IMG/VR virus record: IMGVR_UViG_3300045988_003265
Location: 1-6,075 of that record
Strand: one strand, 5' to 3'
DNA: 6,075 nt
Origin: a virus
Position numbers and translations under genes: made by a program. Shown one piece after another: positions 1 to 6,075 of this stretch (the stretch's first letter is position 1; every line of letters starts with the position of its first letter). A model generated the notes under the pieces. The model had not been told where the DNA came from and made no database searches. It saw nothing but the letters and a program-made list of their open reading frames with translations.

Positions 1-99
1 TAAACTTTTTGTGCTAAGTTGAGTGCATCCATTGACAAACTGCCATCTGAAACGTCTACGGATGAAATTTCATTTATTCCGTTTACTCCTTCAATCCAA
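1..99. repeat. Terminal overlap copy 1 (identical to 5977-6075), the signature of a circular genome
   Basis: I compared the two copies base by base and all 99 nt are identical. Confidence 0.97.
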
Positions 100-1172
100 T
101 CTGTGTTTATCCAATTTTGATACAGGTCACTGTTATATGTTTTTAGTGCTAGTCCGAATTGTGGAGCTGTTGTTTTTAAATATCCGGTTTGCTTTTCTCC
201 GGACCTTTCGTTGAATTGTTGTAATATAGGTACACTGTCTATTCCTGTTACGCTGAATGTAACATTTCCTTTTGTTGTTAAAATATTATCTCTTAGTGTG
301 TCTAGTGATTCTAGTTCCCATTGTTGTAAACCTACGGATAGACCATTGTAAATTGCATCTAATTCGTATTTACTTGTTGCTTCTAATCCTTGTATTACTA
401 GTTGGTTTCCGGCCCATATACCTATGTCCTTTCCCTTCCAGCGTCTGTATCTTAAATTTTGGCTTCCTATGAATGTAAAGTTTGCTTTTTCTTCGTCTGT
501 TGGTGTTGGTGTGAATGCAATTTTATCTCCGTTTGTGATTTGTTTATTTATTTTTGTGGTATTATAGCCCGTATCGTTTATTGTAATTGTGAATTTTCTT
601 GCTCCTCCAATTGTATAGAATTTGTCTTCTTGAGTATTAGCGTAGTAATTCTTGAATATATCGTAATATCCAATTAGTGGAACTGCATTTTTTTCAACAT
701 TTTTTGTTGTTACTCCGATGAGTGAGCCGTATCCCCTGATTCCTAAGTATGCTAGTAGACAACTTGGATTTACTTGTGTCCATTCGTCTTCCGGTTTTGG
801 GTTGTCTGTATTTTTTAAACCTACATTTAATTGCGGTATTTTTACTTGTGACATATCCAGGCCGATTTTTGTTCTATTGTTGTGTAACCAACTGTTATAT
901 AGTCTGAAAGGTACTGTATACACGTGGTGTTCTAGTTTGAAACTTCCGAATAATGGTCCTACTGTTGGATGTGTAAGTACATTTGCTTCAATATCTATAT
1001 CAATTATGTCTCCTTTTTGCACTAATAGTGTTAAATTAGGTACTAATGTTCCAGGTGCTTGTGTATTCCTGACCACTGTACTTAAGTCGTGAGTTGACAT
1101 GTTGTATGTCTTCAAGTCCACGGACATTTTATTATTGTCCCCAATGGTGTTTTTGCCTATATTTCTTTCCAT
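1..1172 (-). CDS. VP1: Major capsid protein VP1 (phiX174 F-like), 5' part (aa 1-390). It continues across the circular junction into 5976->5226.
   Basis: This ORF is absent from the supplied track because it has no in-window stop. The minus-strand ATG at 1172-1170 is preceded by AGGAGG (1185-1180) with a 7-nt spacer. Hand translation is open down to base 1: MERNIGKNTIGDNNKMSVDLKTYNMSTHDLSTVVRNTQAPGTLVPNLTLLVQKGDIIDIDIEANVLTHPTVGPLFGSFKLEHHVYTVPFRLYNSWLHNN... I checked the first 300 nt triplet by triplet and found no stop. The frame is continuous with ORF 5226..6014 through the 99-nt overlap (1172+751=1923 nt, i.e. 640 codons plus stop). I recognise the N-terminal block (PGTLVP ... HPTVGPLFGSFK ... 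VPFRLYNSW) as the microvirus F/VP1 capsid N-terminus. Confidence 0.9.
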   Translation of the reverse strand, partial: MERNIGKNTIGDNNKMSVDLKTYNMSTHDLSTVVRNTQAPGTLVPNLTLLVQKGDIIDIDIEANVLTHPTVGPLFGSFKLEHHVYTVPFRLYNSWLHNNRTKIGLDMSQVKIPQLNVGLKNTDNPKPEDEWTQVNPSCLLAYLGIRGYGSLIGVTTKNVEKNAVPLIGYYDIFKNYYANTQEDKFYTIGGARKFTITINDTGYNTTKINKQITNGDKIAFTPTPTDEEKANFTFIGSQNLRYRRWKGKDIGIWAGNQLVIQGLEATSKYELDAIYNGLSVGLQQWELESLDTLRDNILTTKGNVTFSVTGIDSVPILQQFNERSGEKQTGYLKTTAPQFGLALKTYNSDLYQNWINTDWIEGVNGINEISSVDVSDGSLSMDALNLAQKV

Positions 1173-1399
1173 TATTTATCCTCCTGATTTTTAATTGATT
1201 TTTCGAATTCGTCTGCTTCCTTAAGTGCATAAACCATTGCTGCCACTAAGTTCCAATCTGTTTTATTGATTCTCATTTCAGCGGCTTTGCGGCTTTTGAA
1301 TTTTTCCTCTGTTGCCAAGTGGTTACCGATTGTAATCATAAATTCGTTTTCGTCTGTATCAGTTGGTCTGATTATAAATGCTTCTTTTAGATTTGCCAT
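1172..1399 (-). CDS. Hypothetical acidic small protein (75 aa), translationally coupled to VP1
   Basis: The ORF starts at ATG 1399-1397, and its TAA stop (1174-1172) shares one base with the VP1 ATG (TAATG). The product is MANLKEAFIIRPTDTDENEFMITIGNHLATEEKFKSRKAAEMRINKTDWNLVAAMVYALKEADEFEKSIKNQEDK. I recognise no family. Confidence 0.6.
   Translation of the reverse strand: MANLKEAFIIRPTDTDENEFMITIGNHLATEEKFKSRKAAEMRINKTDWNLVAAMVYALKEADEFEKSIKNQEDK
1180..1185 (-). promoter_or_regulatory. Shine-Dalgarno-like AGGAGG upstream of VP1
   Basis: The minus strand reads AGGAGGATAAATAATG, which places the SD 7 nt from the VP1 ATG. The element lies inside the 3' end of the 75-aa ORF. Confidence 0.5.
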
Positions 1400-1404
1400 T
1401 TTTT

Positions 1405-1608
1405 TTAGTATTTAGGATTAATATTGATGTGTGTACTATCAACGCTTGACGTTGTTGTTTGTTCGGTCTTTTGCGTTGAGTTTTGATTGTTTTTGCTGAC
1501 GCTTAAACTCATCGTGCAACTTTGCACACAAAGCGTAGTAATGATTGCAATTATTGCGGTCGAAATAGCTCGGATAATTTCTACCCATTGAGTCCCGTTG
1601 ATTTTCAT
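1405..1608 (-). CDS. Small membrane protein (67 aa) with an N-terminal TM/signal-anchor segment, a lipobox-like VQSC and a polar S/T/N/Q-rich tail
   Basis: The ATG at 1608-1606 is preceded by GGAG (AAAGATGGAGACTTATG) and overlaps the micro-ORF stop as ATGA. The product is MKINGTQWVEIIRAISTAIIAIITTLCVQSCTMSLSVSKNNQNSTQKTEQTTTSSVDSTHININPKY. A competing ORF in another frame (1439..1648) covers the same DNA, so the choice of frame is uncertain. Confidence 0.5.
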   Translation of the reverse strand: MKINGTQWVEIIRAISTAIIAIITTLCVQSCTMSLSVSKNNQNSTQKTEQTTTSSVDSTHININPKY

Positions 1609-1697
1609 AAGTCTCCATCTTTAATGTATAAATAACATCCGCTTGCAAAAGCGATTATTAGTAATAGTATTACTAGCCCAAATATTTCTTTTGGCAT
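1605..1697 (-). CDS. 30-aa micro-ORF encoding a hydrophobic peptide with a lipoprotein-type signal (lipobox-like FASGC)
   Basis: This ORF is below the size cutoff of the supplied track, so I translated it by hand from ATG 1697-1695: MPKEIFGLVILLLIIAFASGCYLYIKDGDL, ending at TGA 1607-1605. It starts 2 nt after the stop of the 84-aa ORF (TAAACATG). Its stop overlaps the next ORF's start as ATGA. It has Lys at position 3, an uncharged h-region, and A-S-G-C with Cys at position 21, which fits the general prokaryotic lipobox rule. Confidence 0.4.
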   Translation of the reverse strand: MPKEIFGLVILLLIIAFASGCYLYIKDGDL

Positions 1698-1699
1698 GT

Positions 1700-1954
1700 T
1701 TAAAATAATTTAAGTTGTAAATTTTCTAATTGTTGTAGGTGTTCCTCCCACATGTCATAAATTTTTTCTGTTATCAACCTCCTTTCTTTTCTATTTAATT
1801 TGTATTCTTTAATTACCGTATCTTCGAATATTTCGAATCCTTGAGTAACTTCGCCTGGTTTCATGTTATACCAAGCGAATGTTTTGAACGCCTTGAATGT
1901 ACTAAATTCTTTATTCAGTATCACAAACATTGTCTTTCTTTTTGGTTTTTTCAT
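1700..1954 (-). CDS. Hypothetical small protein (84 aa) with a basic N-terminus (MKKPKRK). An alternative ATG at 1930 would give 76 aa.
   Basis: The ATG at 1954-1952 overlaps the previous ORF by 44 nt, and the TAA stop at 1702-1700 is 2 nt before the micro-ORF ATG. The product is MKKPKRKTMFVILNKEFSTFKAFKTFAWYNMKPGEVTQGFEIFEDTVIKEYKLNRKERRLITEKIYDMWEEHLQQLENLQLKLF. I recognise no family. Confidence 0.55.
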   Translation of the reverse strand: MKKPKRKTMFVILNKEFSTFKAFKTFAWYNMKPGEVTQGFEIFEDTVIKEYKLNRKERRLITEKIYDMWEEHLQQLENLQLKLF

Positions 1955-2132
1955 TTTCTTTAGGATATAATTTCCACGATTCTACTACGCATACTAGTTT
2001 TGTTTCTTCCGGGTCGTTTAGCATAATAGCAAATTTTGTTGCTATTGTGTATGTGTTCATACCTGGAATTTCTCTTTCGATAATTTTGCCTTCATTGTTT
2101 ACATAAATTGCTGTAAATTTTGTTGCTGCCAT
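1911..2132 (-). CDS. Hypothetical small protein (73 aa), first gene after the promoter
   Basis: The ATG at 2132-2130 lies about 55-60 nt downstream of the predicted promoter and has an A-rich leader with no SD. The product is MAATKFTAIYVNNEGKIIEREIPGMNTYTIATKFAIMLNDPEETKLVCVVESWKLYPKENEKTKKKDNVCDTE. I recognise no family. Its composition looks like the other genes. Confidence 0.55.
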   Translation of the reverse strand: MAATKFTAIYVNNEGKIIEREIPGMNTYTIATKFAIMLNDPEETKLVCVVESWKLYPKENEKTKKKDNVCDTE

Positions 2133-2194
2133 AATTAAAAATGTTTTTTAGTTACTATTAGTTTTATTTCTCTTCCTTGTTTTTGATTACATTG

Positions 2195-2226
2195 CAAATA
2201 TACGTGTTTTTTTTGATATCTGCAAA
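2195..2226 (-). promoter_or_regulatory. Bacteroides-type promoter: -33 TTTG (2226-2223), 20-nt spacer, -7 TATATTTG (2202-2195)
   Basis: The minus strand reads AAAATTTGCAGATATCAAAAAAAACACGTATATTTGCAATG. This matches the Bacteroides primary-sigma consensus TTTG-N19-21-TAnnTTTG as I recall it. It is positioned to drive the small-ORF cassette and VP1. Confidence 0.6.
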
Positions 2227-2304
2227 TTTTCTGATATTTGTCTGAAGCTTTTAACTATGATTAACACATCTGTACGGTAGGATGCGCGCCGCTTGAGCGC
2301 TGAT

Positions 2305-2346
2305 GGTGCAATAGAGGGCGCATAGCCCTCCTTAGCGTCTAGCACC
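2305..2346. repeat. Nested inverted repeat: GGTGC/GCACC (2305-2309/2342-2346) enclosing GAGGGC/GCCCTC (2314-2319/2325-2330, 5-nt loop)
   Basis: Direct base-by-base pairing check on the sequence. Confidence 0.7.
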
Positions 2347-2360
2347 TTGATATCGCCAAA

Positions 2361-2393
2361 GGCGCACACCACGGCTTTTGCCGGGTGCACGCC
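2361..2393. repeat. 12-bp interrupted GC hairpin (GGCG-CA-CACC-A-CGGC TTTT GCCG-GGTG-CA-CGCC). On the minus strand it is followed by TTTGG, so it could be a weak terminator for the rep transcript.
   Basis: Pairs 2361-2364/2390-2393, 2367-2370/2384-2387 and 2372-2375/2380-2383 were checked by hand. The minus-strand U tract is only 3 nt, so the terminator call is weak. Confidence 0.6.
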
Positions 2394-2550
2394 CTCATAT
2401 AGGTCTGTTCCTTAGGAAACTGTCCTTTACTTTTTCACTGTCGGTCTTTCCCGCTATACCCCTTGGCCACCCGGCCGGAGGTGTTAAATAAAACTTGTGT
2501 TTGATTATTCAGATTCTCGCCTTTGGACTTGGTTTCCTTGCGCTAGCCTA

Positions 2551-2575
2551 GGCGTATGAGTGGAACTCATTCGCC
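2551..2575. repeat. Hairpin GGCG-T-ATGAGT GGA ACTCAT-T-CGCC (10 bp, one T/T mismatch)
   Basis: Direct pairing check. Confidence 0.7.
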
Positions 2576-2576
2576 T

Positions 2577-2608
2577 GCACGTAGACGACGTCCCGTGTCG
2601 TCCAGTGC
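2577..2608. repeat. Hairpin GCAC..GACGAC(G) TCCCG (T)GTCGTC..GTGC (about 11 bp with a small internal loop)
   Basis: Direct pairing check: 2577-2580/2605-2608, 2582/2604 and 2584-2589/2597-2602. Confidence 0.7.
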
Positions 2609-2691
2609 CGCCGTCGCGTTAGCAGGCGTTAAAATCGGAGCGAAGCGACTTCCTAGAGAAAATTACCCTTTTGGCGGCTGGTCAGCAGCCA

Positions 2692-3690
2692 TCAGAACGG
2701 ACACGTCTCTAGCTGTGTATAGTCTTTGGCTCTCTCTATTGCCCAATATGTTTCTAATTGTTGCAAATCTTTATCTTGTCTTTTCTTTTGTCTTCTTAAT
2801 CTTGATAAATATTTTTGTTGTTCCCAATTTTGTAGATTGTAACCATATAGTCTACATTCTGTTTTACGTCCTTCGTTTAGTAATTGTAAATAATATTCTT
2901 CATCATCTCTATGGACTTTTTGTCCCATTACATAAATTATTCCTTTTTCTATTTTATCCAGGAATAGAGCTTCTTTTTCTTCTTCTGTAAATAGTTGATT
3001 CCTGTAATAAATTGGTAGGTTTATTTTAGACCCATTTCTTAATCTGTAAGTTTCTATTGTTTGTCCCGGTTTGTATGTATGTTTTTTTGCGTCATCTCTT
3101 TTGATATATCCAGCTCCTATGCCTTTGGAGCATAGCACTTTCCCTATAAAGTCTTTGTGTTTTTCATCTATTTTAGTCATGTATTTTGTGATATATTGTA
3201 TTGTTTTTTCATTCACGAAGAGTCCGGTGAATGTTATCCCGTAGTTCCATTTATTTGTAATTAGTTTATCTGTTCCTATTCCCCAAACTATACCGTGCAG
3301 GTGCAATCTCTCTGTTTTTTCGTGCCCTAGTTCTGTAATAAACCAATGTTTAATAGATTTACCTGTTTGTTTTCTGATTCTTTCTAGGCATAATCTAATT
3401 GCCTTGGTGGCTATTTCATTATTGTCTGTAATATTATATGTATTTGATAGTTCGCTATATGATTTATCATCAATTGTTAATGTGATAAAATATGCGTTTG
3501 GTTCTTGTCTTAATTCTTCGCTCATTCTAACTAACCATTGTCTTTGTTTTTGTTGACGGCATTCCATGCATTTTCCACATGCCGCGGTTACGTATAATAG
3601 TCTTTCGTCCGGACATTGAGGCGGTACGCCTCCATTCTTTTTGTTTGGTACATACCGCCTGTTTTTGATTAGTTTTGGATATAGACACAT
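2692..3690 (-). CDS. VP4: Rolling-circle replication initiator VP4 (HUH endonuclease, phiX174 A-like), 332 aa
   Basis: The ORF starts at ATG 3690-3688. Three RCR motifs are visible: motif I-like FITLTI, the HUH motif LHLHGIVW, and the double-tyrosine motif YITKYMTK (phiX174 A has YVAKYVNK). The N-terminus carries a Cys cluster (MCLYP...QCPDE...ACGKCMEC) that is common in microvirus Reps. Confidence 0.93.
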   Translation of the reverse strand: MCLYPKLIKNRRYVPNKKNGGVPPQCPDERLLYVTAACGKCMECRQQKQRQWLVRMSEELRQEPNAYFITLTIDDKSYSELSNTYNITDNNEIATKAIRLCLERIRKQTGKSIKHWFITELGHEKTERLHLHGIVWGIGTDKLITNKWNYGITFTGLFVNEKTIQYITKYMTKIDEKHKDFIGKVLCSKGIGAGYIKRDDAKKHTYKPGQTIETYRLRNGSKINLPIYYRNQLFTEEEKEALFLDKIEKGIIYVMGQKVHRDDEEYYLQLLNEGRKTECRLYGYNLQNWEQQKYLSRLRRQKKRQDKDLQQLETYWAIERAKDYTQLETCPF

Positions 3691-3692
3691 AA

Positions 3693-4733
3693 TTATTGAA
3701 AACCTGTTTTACCTACTTTTGCTCCTAGTGCTGCTCCTGCTCCTTTTGATGCTATTTCTAGCATTCCTAGTATAATGTCTTTAACGAGCTTTTGTTCTTC
3801 AATGTCCAGGCCTTTTTTGCCTAGTTCGTATTTGTTTATTACGTCTTGCACATAGGCTTCTATTTGTTCTTTTTGGTTAATGAGTGCTTTTCCTTTTTTG
3901 GTAAGTTCTTCCCATCCTTGTAAAATTTGTGCCGGAATAGCCTTTGCTTGCTCTTCATTGACTTTTCTTTGGCTTCCTTTGAGTAATATTTCAGCCATCA
4001 GATTTTGAAGTGTTAGAGCGGATTCTTTCACTTTATTGTCAATTGTTCTTTCCTTTAACTCGTTGTCGAGTTTCATTCCGTTGATTTCTTCAGCTAGTTT
4101 ATCGATTCCTTTTTGTAGGCTTTTGATATTCCAGCGTGTTTCCTCGGCTTTGTCTTTTGTCCAATCGGCCATGTTTCGTTTAAGTTCCTCTTCTGCATCT
4201 GCCACTCTGATTTGTCCTAAGATAAGGCCTTTCTTTACTTTTTCATTTGAAGTTTGTGCGATTAGGTTATCGATGGTAGCTTTTTGCAAGTCTGTATCTA
4301 CTCCGGCAATTTTGTCCGCTTCTACTTTATTTTTTTCAGCTTGACTCTTGTTGAGGTCTACTTGCGATGCTATGCTTGCTAATTGTAGTCCTAGTCCTTG
4401 TTGTTTTAGTCCCATTTCTACACTACGGTCTGTTGGTTGTGTCACTCCTTGCCCTTGTGCTCCATTGGCACTTACACCTCCGCCACCTCCCATTCCATAC
4501 ATGAGCGCTGGATTTAGTCCTGCGTTTTTTATATGTTGTTTTTGGTTTTCGTAGTTTGTATAGTCCCACAGGTCTTTGTTTCTTTGTTGATTGTTTTTAG
4601 CCATTTGTTCATTATACCTGTTCTGGATATCCATTAGTCTTAGTTGGTTTCCCCATTGTTCGTTGGCAGTTCCGGAACTCATTGCTGCGTTCAGTCCTGC
4701 CCCGAATATGCTGAATATTCCGTTTCCTAACAT
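3693..4733 (-). CDS. VP2: Minor capsid / DNA pilot protein VP2 (phiX174 H-like), 346 aa
   Basis: The ORF starts at ATG 4733-4731, and its TAA stop is 2 nt before the rep ATG (TAATTATG). The N-terminus is hydrophobic (MLGNGIFSIFGAGLNAAMS). It is followed by a Q/N-rich block, a Gly run (MYGMGGGGGVSANGAQGQG) and a long charged, heptad-like region (KSQAEKNKVEADKIAG...EELKRNMADWTKDKAEETRWNIKSLQKGIDKLAEEINGMKLDNELKERTIDNKVKE). This architecture is typical of microvirus pilot proteins. Confidence 0.8.
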   Translation of the reverse strand: MLGNGIFSIFGAGLNAAMSSGTANEQWGNQLRLMDIQNRYNEQMAKNNQQRNKDLWDYTNYENQKQHIKNAGLNPALMYGMGGGGGVSANGAQGQGVTQPTDRSVEMGLKQQGLGLQLASIASQVDLNKSQAEKNKVEADKIAGVDTDLQKATIDNLIAQTSNEKVKKGLILGQIRVADAEEELKRNMADWTKDKAEETRWNIKSLQKGIDKLAEEINGMKLDNELKERTIDNKVKESALTLQNLMAEILLKGSQRKVNEEQAKAIPAQILQGWEELTKKGKALINQKEQIEAYVQDVINKYELGKKGLDIEEQKLVKDIILGMLEIASKGAGAALGAKVGKTGFQ

Positions 4734-4903: not shown

Positions 4904-5221
4904 TTAATTTTCGCTTGGTGTTCCTCCTTCCGTTTTGTTTGGTACATTTCCAAAGTCTTCCGGTTTGGGAGCATTTTCTTTTTTCGCCTTACTCCGGCCA
5001 ATTTTATCCATAGCTTCTAGTGCTATGTCGAATCTGTCTGTACGAATATTATAAGCCGGAAGTACTCCGTCTTTTTTTTCTGTGAATATGATAGGCGCAC
5101 TATCTGTAATCGGTTCTTTGTTTTGAGTGATTCTCGCTACTTTGGTTTCGATTGTTTCACCTTCTTGGATTTCTACACTTTGTATTCTTCCAAGTAAATT
5201 TGGTATGATTGTTGTTTTCAT
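4904..5221 (-). CDS. VP3: Internal scaffolding protein, VP3-like (105 aa from the ATG at 5221). The track's 124-aa version starts at a TTG inside VP1.
   Basis: The ATG at 5221-5219 lies 4 nt after the VP1 stop (TAACAATATG). The product is MKTTIIPNLLGRIQSVEIQEGETIETKVARITQNKEPITDSAPIIFTEKKDGVLPAYNIRTDRFDIALEAMDKIGRSKAKKENAPKPEDFGNVPNKTEGGTPSEN. The assignment rests on its small size, charged composition, position directly after VP1, and an IRTDRFDIA-type motif that I recall from microvirus VP3 proteins. It was not verified by a search. Confidence 0.65.
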   Translation of the reverse strand: MKTTIIPNLLGRIQSVEIQEGETIETKVARITQNKEPITDSAPIIFTEKKDGVLPAYNIRTDRFDIALEAMDKIGRSKAKKENAPKPEDFGNVPNKTEGGTPSEN

Positions 5222-5225
5222 ATTG

Positions 5226-6075
5226 TTATAAATTTGGAATTTGTTTTGCGCTGATAAGCCTTCTTGCCTTGATGTCAAACTTTGTTTGTATCCAAAAGTT
5301 CATAGCTTCTAGATTTGTATCTGCAAATATGTAATTGAATTTCACTGGATCTATATATGTAGATAAGTCTCCGATTGTGATTTTTGTCGGAGACGATCCA
5401 CCTATTATTTCTAGTTCGTAGTTTCTGTTCATTACCATGAATGCTTCATTATCTTTGATAGCAAAGTTTCCGTATGTTCTGTTTACATTTGTCATGTAAT
5501 TGATCCATGCTACCGTCTTACCTGCTGCTGTTTCTTTTTTATCTGGGTCTGCATTGTAGTATCCTGCCCACCATGCTCGTTCACTGTTGATACTGTCTTG
5601 GTATCCGATTCCGTCGAGTGCTGGTTTATGGAGGTCGTCCATTGTTTTGAGTTCTGTATCCCATTGGTTACCCTGTGAGTAGTCGATTCTTGGTGTGATA
5701 CTACAGATACACATGATATACCCCGGTTCGGTTACTTTTATTTTGATGTGTCCGCCTCGTTGTTTGTTGGTTGTTACACCTCTTCCTGCAAGTGCTCCTA
5801 ATGGTTCTTGTTCTGTTGCACTGTTACTGATTACTTCTTGGAATACAATTTCTTGACTTGTTCCTCCTTCGAATACAGGTGTCTCGCATCTTTCCATATA
5901 TTCTCCACCTGTGAATACTGTTTCTAGCCAGTCTCTGTATGTTCCTCCGCTTACTGCAATTCTGTTTAACATGTTGTAAACTTTTTGTGCTAAGTTGAGT
6001 GCATCCATTGACAAACTGCCATCTGAAACGTCTACGGATGAAATTTCATTTATTCCGTTTACTCCTTCAATCCAA
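5226..6075 (-). CDS. VP1: Major capsid protein VP1, 3' part. Bases 5977-6075 duplicate 1-99, and the TAA stop is at 5228-5226.
   Basis: The track ORF 5226..6014 begins at an internal TTG, and the frame stays open to the window end. The sequence ...SMDALNLAQKVYNMLNRIAVSGGTYRDWLETVF...GGHIKIKVTEPGYIMCICSITPRIDYSQGNQW...IPNL is the C-terminal half of the same capsid protein. It joins 1..1172 in frame once the terminal repeat is collapsed. Confidence 0.9.
   Translation of the reverse strand, partial: WIEGVNGINEISSVDVSDGSLSMDALNLAQKVYNMLNRIAVSGGTYRDWLETVFTGGEYMERCETPVFEGGTSQEIVFQEVISNSATEQEPLGALAGRGVTTNKQRGGHIKIKVTEPGYIMCICSITPRIDYSQGNQWDTELKTMDDLHKPALDGIGYQDSINSERAWWAGYYNADPDKKETAAGKTVAWINYMTNVNRTYGNFAIKDNEAFMVMNRNYELEIIGGSSPTKITIGDLSTYIDPVKFNYIFADTNLEAMNFWIQTKFDIKARRLISAKQIPNL
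5977..6075. repeat. Terminal overlap copy 2 (identical to 1-99)
   Basis: Same comparison. Collapsing the overlap restores an uninterrupted 640-aa VP1 frame. Confidence 0.97.

Follow-up and report, generated by a model that had tools for sequence, protein, structure and literature searches.

Colicin lysis proteins and o-spanins of the Rz1 type are made as precursors of ~45-67 amino acids (aa) that carry a lipobox, and their mature lipopeptides are ~30-40 residues long and have no enzymatic domain. These very small lipoproteins compromise the envelope and are encoded by mobile elements whose product or progeny must exit from a diderm cell. The small protein E of phiX174 is encoded out of frame inside gene D; it is not lipidated, its transmembrane domain is conserved and essential, and its C-terminus can be replaced. 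In the human gut, microviruses of the type studied here rank among the most abundant phages and, to our knowledge, their genes beyond those for the capsid, pilot and replication proteins are blanks and their route of exit from the cell is not known. We have analysed a 67-aa gene and the 30-aa open reading frame (ORF) that precedes it (the micro-ORF) in a viral DNA of 6,075 nucleotides (nt), IMG/VR record IMGVR_UViG_3300045988_003265, which is referred to as the window in its full length. It represents a complete circular microvirus genome in which all genes are on the minus strand, from an Alpavirinae-like group that infects Bacteroides. A first-pass annotation had read the two ORFs as a coupled pair of membrane/lipobox proteins and as a candidate lysis or superinfection-exclusion module. 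As judged from the comparisons below, the strongest constraint on any coding segment in a large group of gut Bacteroides microviruses is that on the 67-aa gene, whose product has the layout of a lipoprotein precursor with a near-invariant tail.

The gene and the parts of its product are located as follows.

1405..1608 (ATG 1608..1606, stop 1407..1405), minus strand: 67-aa gene, predicted prolipoprotein.
1519..1608, minus strand: codons 1-30, signal-peptide-like part, with n-region MKINGTQWVEIIR and h-region AISTAIIAIITTLCV, then Q-S.
1516..1518, minus strand: codon 31 (TGC), invariant lipobox Cys, predicted acylation and cleavage site.
1408..1518, minus strand: codons 31-67, predicted mature S/T/N/Q-rich lipopeptide of 37 residues, CTMSLSVSKNNQNSTQKTEQTTTSSVDSTHININPKY.
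1432..1440, minus strand: codons 57-59, D-S-T, a Bacteroidota O-glycosylation sequon.

The 67-aa family comprised 740 homologous protein clusters at E<=0.01 in a large protein collection, with no precomputed Pfam domain among the clusters listed, as well as 84 IMG/VR loci and 72 clusters at 50% identity. Copies of the gene were also found in integrated prophages and metagenome-assembled genome (MAG) contigs of Bacteroides, which identified this genus as the host. One of these prophages (L088), of ~6.5 kb, is integrated in the isolate Bacteroides sp. f07, on a contig of 3.7 Mb, with a TPR gene on one side and a Usp gene on the other. Within the group, the gene is nearly universal and syntenic, and in 62 of the 88 loci analysed it overlaps the upstream gene or starts <=10 nt from its stop (no upstream ORF was found in 4 loci).

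Family statistics were obtained from 87 distinct nucleotide sequences of the gene, with identities measured against the window. The two other reading frames contain stops in all 87, which removes the alternative frame at 1439-1648; conservation in favour of that frame would, according to the first-pass annotation, have refuted its proposal. The median ratio of nonsynonymous to synonymous substitution rates (dN/dS) was lower in the mature part (0.12) than in the signal part (0.21). Thr32 is invariant and is encoded by 4 codons, Ser34 and Ser36 are invariant and use all 6 Ser codons, and Ser58 is encoded by five. As switches between TCN and AGY codons for Ser need at least 2 changes, selection acts on the protein and not on the DNA. 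These codon patterns indicate, in our view without doubt, that the 67-aa ORF is a true gene under protein-level selection.

The constraint is unevenly distributed along the product. Codons 1-30 are variable, with a median identity of 43% to the window across loci, whereas residues 31-66 have a median identity of 92% (86 loci). In the same 86 loci the median identities of VP4, VP2 and VP1 are 39%, 33% and 52-57%, respectively, and the tail stays 86-94% identical even where the capsid, pilot or replication proteins are <=25% identical or undetectable by tblastn. At the boundary between the two parts, Cys31 is present in 87 of 87 sequences (TGT in 48, TGC in 39) and is preceded by Ser in 75 and by Ala in 12. 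Cys31 and Asp57 are the only invariant columns in a wider alignment, made from 32 diverse members with identities as low as 23%, and the Cys is kept in the 50%-identity representatives as well. The residues in front of it vary across the wide family (VQS/QSC, AQS, TTA/TAC, STA, VVS/VSC, ITG/TGC), with position -1 being nearly always Ser, Ala or Gly. A variable leader, a fixed Cys after a small residue and a constant downstream part make up the layout of a cleaved lipoprotein signal peptide.

Other properties of the leader were compatible with this. The n-region is charged at Lys2 and Arg13, and the Cys, at residue 31, falls within the 15-35 range. The hydrophobic segments that the first-pass annotation had noticed in both ORFs were recovered, with Kyte-Doolittle maxima over 19 residues of 1.92 for the 67-aa ORF and 2.63 for the 30-aa ORF, each other small ORF staying below 0.6. 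On this measure, the two are the sole membrane-targeted products of the genome. AlphaFold predicted an N-terminal helix for the 67-aa protein with a predicted local distance difference test score (pLDDT) of 87-96. We consider it quite likely, from these features, that the product is an exported lipoprotein. The variable N-terminal 30 residues would act as a Sec signal peptide, Cys31 would be acylated and signal peptidase II would cut in front of it, leaving a polar lipopeptide of 37 residues tethered to the periplasm-facing leaflet of a membrane.

Several observations weigh against the lipoprotein assignment. The lipobox rule used here was a PROSITE PS51257-type pattern, [LIVMFWSTAG]2-[LIVMFYSTAGCQ]-[AGS]-C, and the window sequence, C-V-Q-S-C, misses it through the Cys at -4 alone. 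It is satisfied by 51 of the 87 sequences (TAQSC, FVQSC, LSTAC and others), while the remaining 36 fail, mostly through a Cys at -4, and Glu, Asp, Asn or Lys occurs close to the Cys in a few distant members. Signal peptidase I could likewise accept the residues at -3 and -1, the same topology would result from an uncleaved signal anchor, and AlphaFold gave no confident fold for the tail (pLDDT ~50). The 67-aa product might be exported and never lipidated, either as an uncleaved type II signal-anchored protein or as a soluble glycopeptide released by signal peptidase I, such as a signal or a toxin that acts on neighbouring cells. V-Q-S before Cys31 agrees with the -3/-1 rule of signal peptidase I, just those 51 sequences pass the strict lipobox rule, and an O-glycosylation sequon demands export alone; moreover, the N-terminal segment of the cellular smalltalk proteins, relatives treated below, is highly conserved, which is unusual for a discarded signal peptide. 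What makes export without lipidation improbable is that the Cys is the most conserved residue of the family in surroundings that vary, with Ser, Ala or Gly almost always at -1, and we know of nothing but lipidation that requires a Cys exactly at +1. In addition, one would expect a phage-specific signalling peptide to diversify, whereas the tail of the 67-aa product is nearly invariant.

The tail carries a second fixed element, the D-S-T at codons 57-59. Bacteroidota possess a general O-glycosylation system with the sequon D-(S/T)-(A/I/L/V/M/T). The system operates in the periplasm on noncytoplasmic proteins, and in Bacteroides fragilis it tolerates no Glu in place of Asp (PMC8550257, PMC12871550). 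The sequon was present in 87 of 87 locus sequences, in 117 of 118 close matches and in 79 of 81 members of a divergent smalltalk-like subfamily, and its third residue was confined to T, I, V, A and L. Ser58 exceeded 90% in the alignment of 32 diverse members, and the 50%-identity representatives that fail the sequon mostly have frame-shifted tails. A sequon of this kind kept so strictly speaks for a tail outside the cytoplasm, and Ser58 is probably O-glycosylated. Positions +2 to +6 are T-M-S-L-S and contain no acidic residue, unlike the surface-export signal of B. fragilis, SDDDD (PMC5080379), so the peptide is predicted to face the periplasm. There, the near-invariant tail would most likely bind a conserved component of the Bacteroides envelope.

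We have also searched for the ancestry of the protein. Against the NCBIfam model smalltalk (NF033879), the window protein scored 20.6 bits over residues 7-32 (E 2.9e-4), below the cut-off of 24.7, and it had no match to Pfam DUF6486 (PF20096). Other viral members of the family pass the smalltalk/DUF6486 models at 32-56 bits, with smalltalk-model scores of 53.7 for P0177, 50.6 for P0149, 44.1 for P0157 and 32.1 for P0181. Over 29 residues, some microviral members share ~72% identity with cellular smalltalk proteins, and hhalign aligned the window subfamily with the cellular proteins at a probability of 86-94%, Cys on Cys. The shared N-terminal layout consists of a short Lys-rich start, a Trp/Ile-rich helix and x-x-(S/A/G)-Cys, and the two sets come from the same host phylum. 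They differ after the Cys: the cellular proteins, from Prevotella and Bacteroidaceae, are 35-37 aa long (MKKETWKTIIQVIVSILTAALTALGTTSC-MGHGPIAF) and end ~8 residues after it, whereas the viral proteins, of 63-68 aa, continue into an unrelated, virus-specific tail of 36-37 residues with the sequon. By these profile comparisons, the window protein is a diverged smalltalk relative that lies below the curated membership threshold. The link gives ancestry; it is not one of function or mechanism.

The cellular smalltalk genes lie directly downstream of an HU-HIG (PF18291) gene in 5 of 6 distinct contexts, the upstream sequence being too short in the sixth. The viral upstream genes, encoding the 84-aa and 73-aa products, showed no similarity to HU-HIG, which ruled out that the virus had captured an HU-HIG and smalltalk pair. 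A neighbouring gene for an N-acetylmuramoyl-L-alanine amidase, which we had presumed to accompany cellular smalltalk genes and which would have hinted at lysis, was not confirmed in the six distinct contexts. Cellular-type smalltalk genes were not found in viral contigs with the narrow search patterns used, and tblastn of annotated phages returned only two weak matches, in unannotated phage records of 6.5 kb (microvirus-sized) and 12.3 kb. In the Prevotella/Bacteroidaceae metagenome contigs that carry the HU-HIG/smalltalk pair (L101-L111, L115 and L116), the flanking DNA is not constant between contigs, and genes for restriction-modification, HNH, SMC-like ATPase, HigB/HicB and RhuM proteins are frequent in it; such a pair may sit at the border of a variable island rich in defence genes.

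We have then investigated the micro-ORF, which had been missed in the ORF list supplied with the window and was found where the first-pass annotation had placed it. The features concerned are the following.

1605..1697, minus strand: 30-aa micro-ORF MPKEIFGLVILLLIIAFASGCYLYIKDGDL, hydrophobic, lineage-specific, with ATGA overlap.
1626..1696, minus strand: 71-nt stretch of the micro-ORF, absent from the closest relatives (PV067927, L005, L011), with ACA microhomology at its flanks.
1954..1700, minus strand: 84-aa ORF of the small-ORF block, soluble, with no Pfam or PHROG match.

The punctuation described for it was equally correct: the micro-ORF starts 2 nt after the TAA of the 84-aa ORF, and its TGA overlaps the ATG of the 67-aa gene as ATGA. 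A GGAG is indeed present 8-11 nt upstream of that ATG, as had been noted, although it is not conserved in relatives, and we have discarded it as a ribosome-binding site. Bacteroidota make little use of Shine-Dalgarno pairing.

The lipobox proposed for the micro-ORF exists in the window, where F-A-S-G-C, with Cys21 and Lys3, is the sole fit to the PROSITE-type rule among 72 ORFs; on the A-rich coding strand, the rule was matched in 0.3% of 300 shuffles. Its homologues tell otherwise. Among ~90 related loci, the micro-ORF was found in 8 other contigs only (L004, L006, L007, L094-L098), amounting to ~7 distinct sequences with that of the window, and residue 21 is Cys in the window and L094-97, Ala in L098, Ser in L006 and L007, and Gly in L004, codon 21 being the most variable of all. 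With residue 21 being C/A/S/G, the lipoprotein reading of the micro-ORF fails its key test. This case illustrates that a lipobox seen in one sequence alone can mislead. The micro-ORF had no match to a Pfam, PHROG or NCBIfam family. An origin as a decayed smalltalk gene or as a duplicate of the signal peptide of the 67-aa protein (MPKEIFG vs. MKKEIWG) was rejected, given hhalign probabilities of <1% for both and no NCBIfam match.

Most relatives show the stop of the upstream gene followed directly by the start of the 67-aa gene (TAAACATGAAA), so that in them the gene starts at the position where the micro-ORF starts in the window. The closest annotated relative, PV067927 (a human-gut Microviridae genome, ~83% nucleotide identity over the small-ORF block), and L005 and L011 lack the 71-nt segment and keep the last ~20 nt of the micro-ORF, and are therefore deletion derivatives. 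The check on conservation that the first-pass annotation had called for gave a divided answer: the 67-aa gene is conserved with selection at the codon level, whereas the micro-ORF exists in few relatives and is deleted or truncated in others. The micro-ORF would be a recent and dispensable insertion at the start position of the 67-aa gene that passes ribosomes on through the ATGA, and it may yield an accessory transmembrane peptide that is neither a lipoprotein nor an obligate partner.

It is quite conceivable, if somewhat short of probable, that the micro-ORF is no functional gene but an open frame left over from an insertion, tolerated as it keeps the punctuation for translation of the 67-aa gene. 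Its narrow distribution, one loss by deletion, one truncation by a stop (TAA at codon 24 in L097) and the lack of any homologue or family match are all in line with this, as is other debris at the same junction, namely the decayed duplicate in L022 and L024. Both loci have, at 134-140 nt upstream of the 67-aa gene, one further short ORF (MKITGSHRAEIIRTIYTDIITTIKK...) with the look of a decayed partial tandem duplicate of the 5' end of that gene; the junction is therefore prone to duplications and indels. The opposite is suggested by the comparison between the two lineages that carry the micro-ORF. Of the 17 nucleotide differences (~18%) between them, 8 are synonymous, with Leu codons switched three times, and the others replace amino acids conservatively. 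The hydrophobic core does not vary, the frame, the length of 30 codons and the start are kept, and the other two frames are closed. The dN/dS was 0.26 (Fisher p=0.02), in what amounts to a single comparison of two lineages. All copies but the truncated L097 retain the ATGA overlap. We regard an accessory transmembrane peptide and a tolerated insertion that preserves coupling as about equally likely.

A two-component module of the 30-aa and 67-aa products, either spanin-like or holin-like after fusion as the first-pass annotation had envisaged, is very improbable. The two ORFs are adjacent and overlap at the ATGA, which is kept in every copy save that of L097, both are membrane-targeted, and the micro-ORF is under some purifying selection. 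Still, the distribution largely refutes the module: the micro-ORF is absent from >90% of the genomes that have the 67-aa gene, deleted in the nearest relatives and truncated in L097. Only ~9 residues follow its hydrophobic core, leaving no periplasmic domain of the coiled-coil type, and Pfam and PHROG searches revealed no endolysin or holin. An obligate Rz/Rz1-like pair is not supported on these grounds, nor was an Rz/Rz1 family match obtained. The envisaged fusion of ~97 aa with two transmembrane segments did not materialize either, since the inspected homologues of 76-96 aa are N-terminal extensions from an upstream in-frame ATG or read-through C-termini, and none contains the micro-ORF. A holin identity was likewise rejected for the 67-aa protein, which has no holin match, a single hydrophobic segment and no fused forms. 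One database entry is automatically labelled as an 'SPP1 phage holin' (Holin_SPP1, PF04688), a label that we have set aside, as the cellular smalltalk protein P0274 reached that model with E 0.018 and 15.7 bits only, against a cut-off of 27 bits; the other entries of the family read 'hypothetical protein'.

The remaining genome was mapped as follows.

3690..2692, minus strand: VP4 replication protein.
4733..3693, minus strand: VP2 pilot protein.
5278..4904, minus strand: 124-aa ORF.
2132..1911, minus strand: 73-aa ORF of the small-ORF block.
1399..1172, minus strand: 75-aa ORF of the small-ORF block.
1-1128 + 5226-6075, minus strand: major capsid gene, which crosses the window ends.
2195..2226, minus strand: candidate Bacteroides-type promoter TTTG-N20-TATATTTG, upstream of the small-ORF block, given as context only.

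Joining the ends of the window gives a capsid ORF of 672 aa without internal stop, which identifies the window as one full circular genome; the capsid part at 5226-6014 matches Pfam Phage_F. The small-ORF block encodes, in this order, products of 73, 84, 30, 67 and 75 aa and is followed by the capsid gene. Promoters of the primary sigma factor of Bacteroides have the consensus TTTG at -33 and TAnnTTTG at -7 (PMC7366714). TAnnTTTG occurs a single time on the coding strand of the whole genome, in the candidate promoter, with TTTG 20 nt upstream of it and 63 nt separating the promoter from the ATG of the 73-aa ORF. On this motif match, the candidate promoter fits a Bacteroides host and a single transcript over the small-ORF block. 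An Rfam search of the window gave no match.

A noncoding stretch of ~500 nt separates VP4 from the small-ORF block (2190-2690, minus strand). Its GC content is 52%, compared with ~35% elsewhere, and as single-stranded DNA its fold is more stable than those of shuffles (z = -3.4). It includes a block of 60 nt with a long hairpin (2334-2393, GGCGTGCACCCGGCAAAAGCCGTGGTGTGCGCC...), which is 92-95% identical in otherwise unrelated rodent microviruses (H12, H13, H17), and a 22-mer from this block has an exact copy in 7 fetched loci. In the Bacteroides prophage L088, the genome is opened within the VP4-to-small-ORF interval. This hairpin stretch could be a replication or complementary-strand origin, or the site of prophage integration.

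Lysis or exclusion, the kinds of function put forward by the first-pass annotation, remains the most reasonable proposal for the 67-aa product as far as its sequence can tell. Of the two, we infer that lysis is the most likely role, with superinfection exclusion being the main rival. The 67-aa product would bring about host lysis and progeny release as one small protein, a lipoprotein-type analogue of single-gene and colicin lysis proteins. This assignment is tentative, with somewhat less than an even chance of being right, and it is the weakest step of the chain that leads from export through lipidation and glycosylation to function.

The gene content of the microviruses is compatible with lysis. 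Pfam and PHROG searches found no peptidase, amidase, other muralytic enzyme or E-like gene in the genome, and among its conserved products the predicted lipoprotein is the only one directed to the envelope. The first-pass annotation had stated that no lysis gene is established for microviruses outside the phiX174-like group; this was too strong, given that M15 peptidases have been proposed as lysis enzymes of some Alpavirinae (PMC3394797) and also for Gokushovirinae (PMC3394797, PMC9239249). No M15 peptidase was found in the loci bearing the 67-aa gene, and the three M15-bearing Bacteroides-type microviruses that we have examined all lack the 67-aa family. One of them is phiHBP1 (L084, PV598014), the only cultured Bacteroides microvirus, in which we take a 134-aa hypothetical protein (84-488, minus strand) to be a candidate M15-family peptidase from the motifs SGYRS...H...D, recognised by eye. 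Relatives of this protein, at 78-79% identity, occur in two other microvirus-sized contigs. Having no member of the 67-aa family, phiHBP1 is unsuitable as a direct model.

The position of the gene was also informative. The 67-aa gene is located in the VP4-VP1 interval, which houses lysis-associated accessory genes in other microvirus families (PMC9239249). The same slot is occupied in Dulem virus 214 (L099, PP511460.1, 5458-5553) by a cationic amphipathic peptide of 31 aa, MKKGWKIVITILKVIVKTVESIFGKKNEPNN, with no family member present, and in Microvirus mar40 (L100, MZ089786.1, 5289-5486) by a distant homologue whose lipobox reads I-T-A-C and whose sequon is D-S-T. The slot may represent a replaceable cassette for an envelope effector.

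A number of points weigh against lysis. Known single-gene lysis proteins are fast-evolving and diverse, and a polar peptide that outconserves the capsid would be unusual among them. The complementary distribution of M15 peptidases and the 67-aa family is based on just the three peptidase-bearing genomes. Neither ORF matched a lysis, spanin, holin, exclusion or defence family in Pfam, PHROGs, NCBIfam, PADLOC or a PDB profile search. The near-complete metagenome contig L095 (OGKB01003417.1, 5913 bp), in which the micro-ORF is present, has lost 11 nt (AAAGTTGCACG) of the 67-aa gene at ~1675-1690, equivalent to 1513-1523 of the window. This deletion takes away the Cys31 codon and causes a frameshift, and the protein collection contains the truncated product as well (P0139). 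The deletion may reflect a dispensable gene, a defective genome or an assembly error. Finally, the presence of the gene in prophages fits exclusion equally well.

Under exclusion, the 67-aa product would be a periplasm-side lipoprotein for superinfection exclusion or receptor masking, produced from the prophage or in the course of infection, which blocks further microviruses or keeps the progeny off debris. Small lipoproteins are recurrent in such systems, as exemplified by T5 Llp, Cor and TP-J34 Ltp, of which Llp and the Cor proteins act on FhuA, and the predicted layout of the 67-aa product, small and periplasm-facing, is the same. A lysogen carrying one of the integrated Bacteroides prophages could benefit from exclusion, and the natural frameshift variant in L095 suggests that the gene can be lost. 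On the other hand, a factor aimed at a receptor or at virions is expected to change along with them, and the tail keeps its 86-94% identity across diverged capsid and pilot proteins. The gene is, moreover, nearly universal and syntenic and not sporadic like typical exclusion morons, and no PADLOC or exclusion-family match was obtained. We rate exclusion as rather unlikely.

For lysis, a specific scheme can be drawn, in which the mature 37-residue glycolipopeptide is the effector, acts as a lipoprotein-type 'protein antibiotic' on a conserved step of periplasmic or outer-membrane biogenesis in Bacteroides, and has evolved from a host smalltalk/DUF6486 micro-lipoprotein by acquisition of a new tail. 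In this detailed form the scheme is possible, though less likely than not. The broader reading, an exported, lipidated and glycosylated peptide of 37 residues with lysis as the preferred role, stands in our estimate at an even balance.

The analysis yields a concrete prediction for the 67-aa product, namely Sec export, lipidation of Cys31 and O-glycosylation of Ser58, and the prophage of the cultured isolate Bacteroides sp. f07 offers a natural test bed for it. Should the peptide kill or lyse cells, a conserved and exploitable target in the envelope would follow from its near-invariance; were it a true lysis effector, its gene would be the first lysis gene of this major group of human-gut phages and would point to a vulnerable target in Bacteroidota. 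An exclusion factor would instead have a bearing on phage-host dynamics in the gut. The analysis also provides a first functional handle on the smalltalk/DUF6486 micro-proteins, for which, as for microviral lipoproteins, no account was found in the searchable literature. The first-pass annotation had described the sequence features correctly; the conservation of the tail, the O-glycosylation sequon and the smalltalk/DUF6486 link had escaped it.

When compared with known systems, the 67-aa protein falls among the small phage-encoded lipoproteins, an established kind. With T5 Llp and Cor it shares the format of a small phage lipoprotein predicted to face the periplasm, in a phage able to reside in its host. 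There is no homology to either, and the conservation of the 67-aa protein greatly exceeds that of the capsid and pilot proteins, unlike what a receptor-matched factor would show. The likeness to phiX174 E lies in the use of one small membrane-targeted protein by a genome of ~6 kb without muralytic enzyme. In contrast to E, however, the 67-aa gene stands alone between the 84-aa and 75-aa genes, its leader is variable (43%) and its tail near-invariant (92%), and its invariant Cys points to lipidation. In layout, the 67-aa protein resembles the colicin lysis proteins and lambda Rz1, with which it has in common a tiny precursor with a lipobox, a short non-enzymatic mature lipopeptide and a place on a mobile element. 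This resemblance does not extend to sequence, as no homology and no Pfam match to Lysis_col or Rz1 were detected at E<=0.1. The tail is S/T/N/Q-rich and not Pro-rich as in the colicin lysis/Rz1 type, and it has no second Cys. The 67-aa protein further departs from Rz1 in having no Rz-like partner, endolysin or holin beside it, in its Bacteroides host and in the O-glycosylation sequon that it carries.

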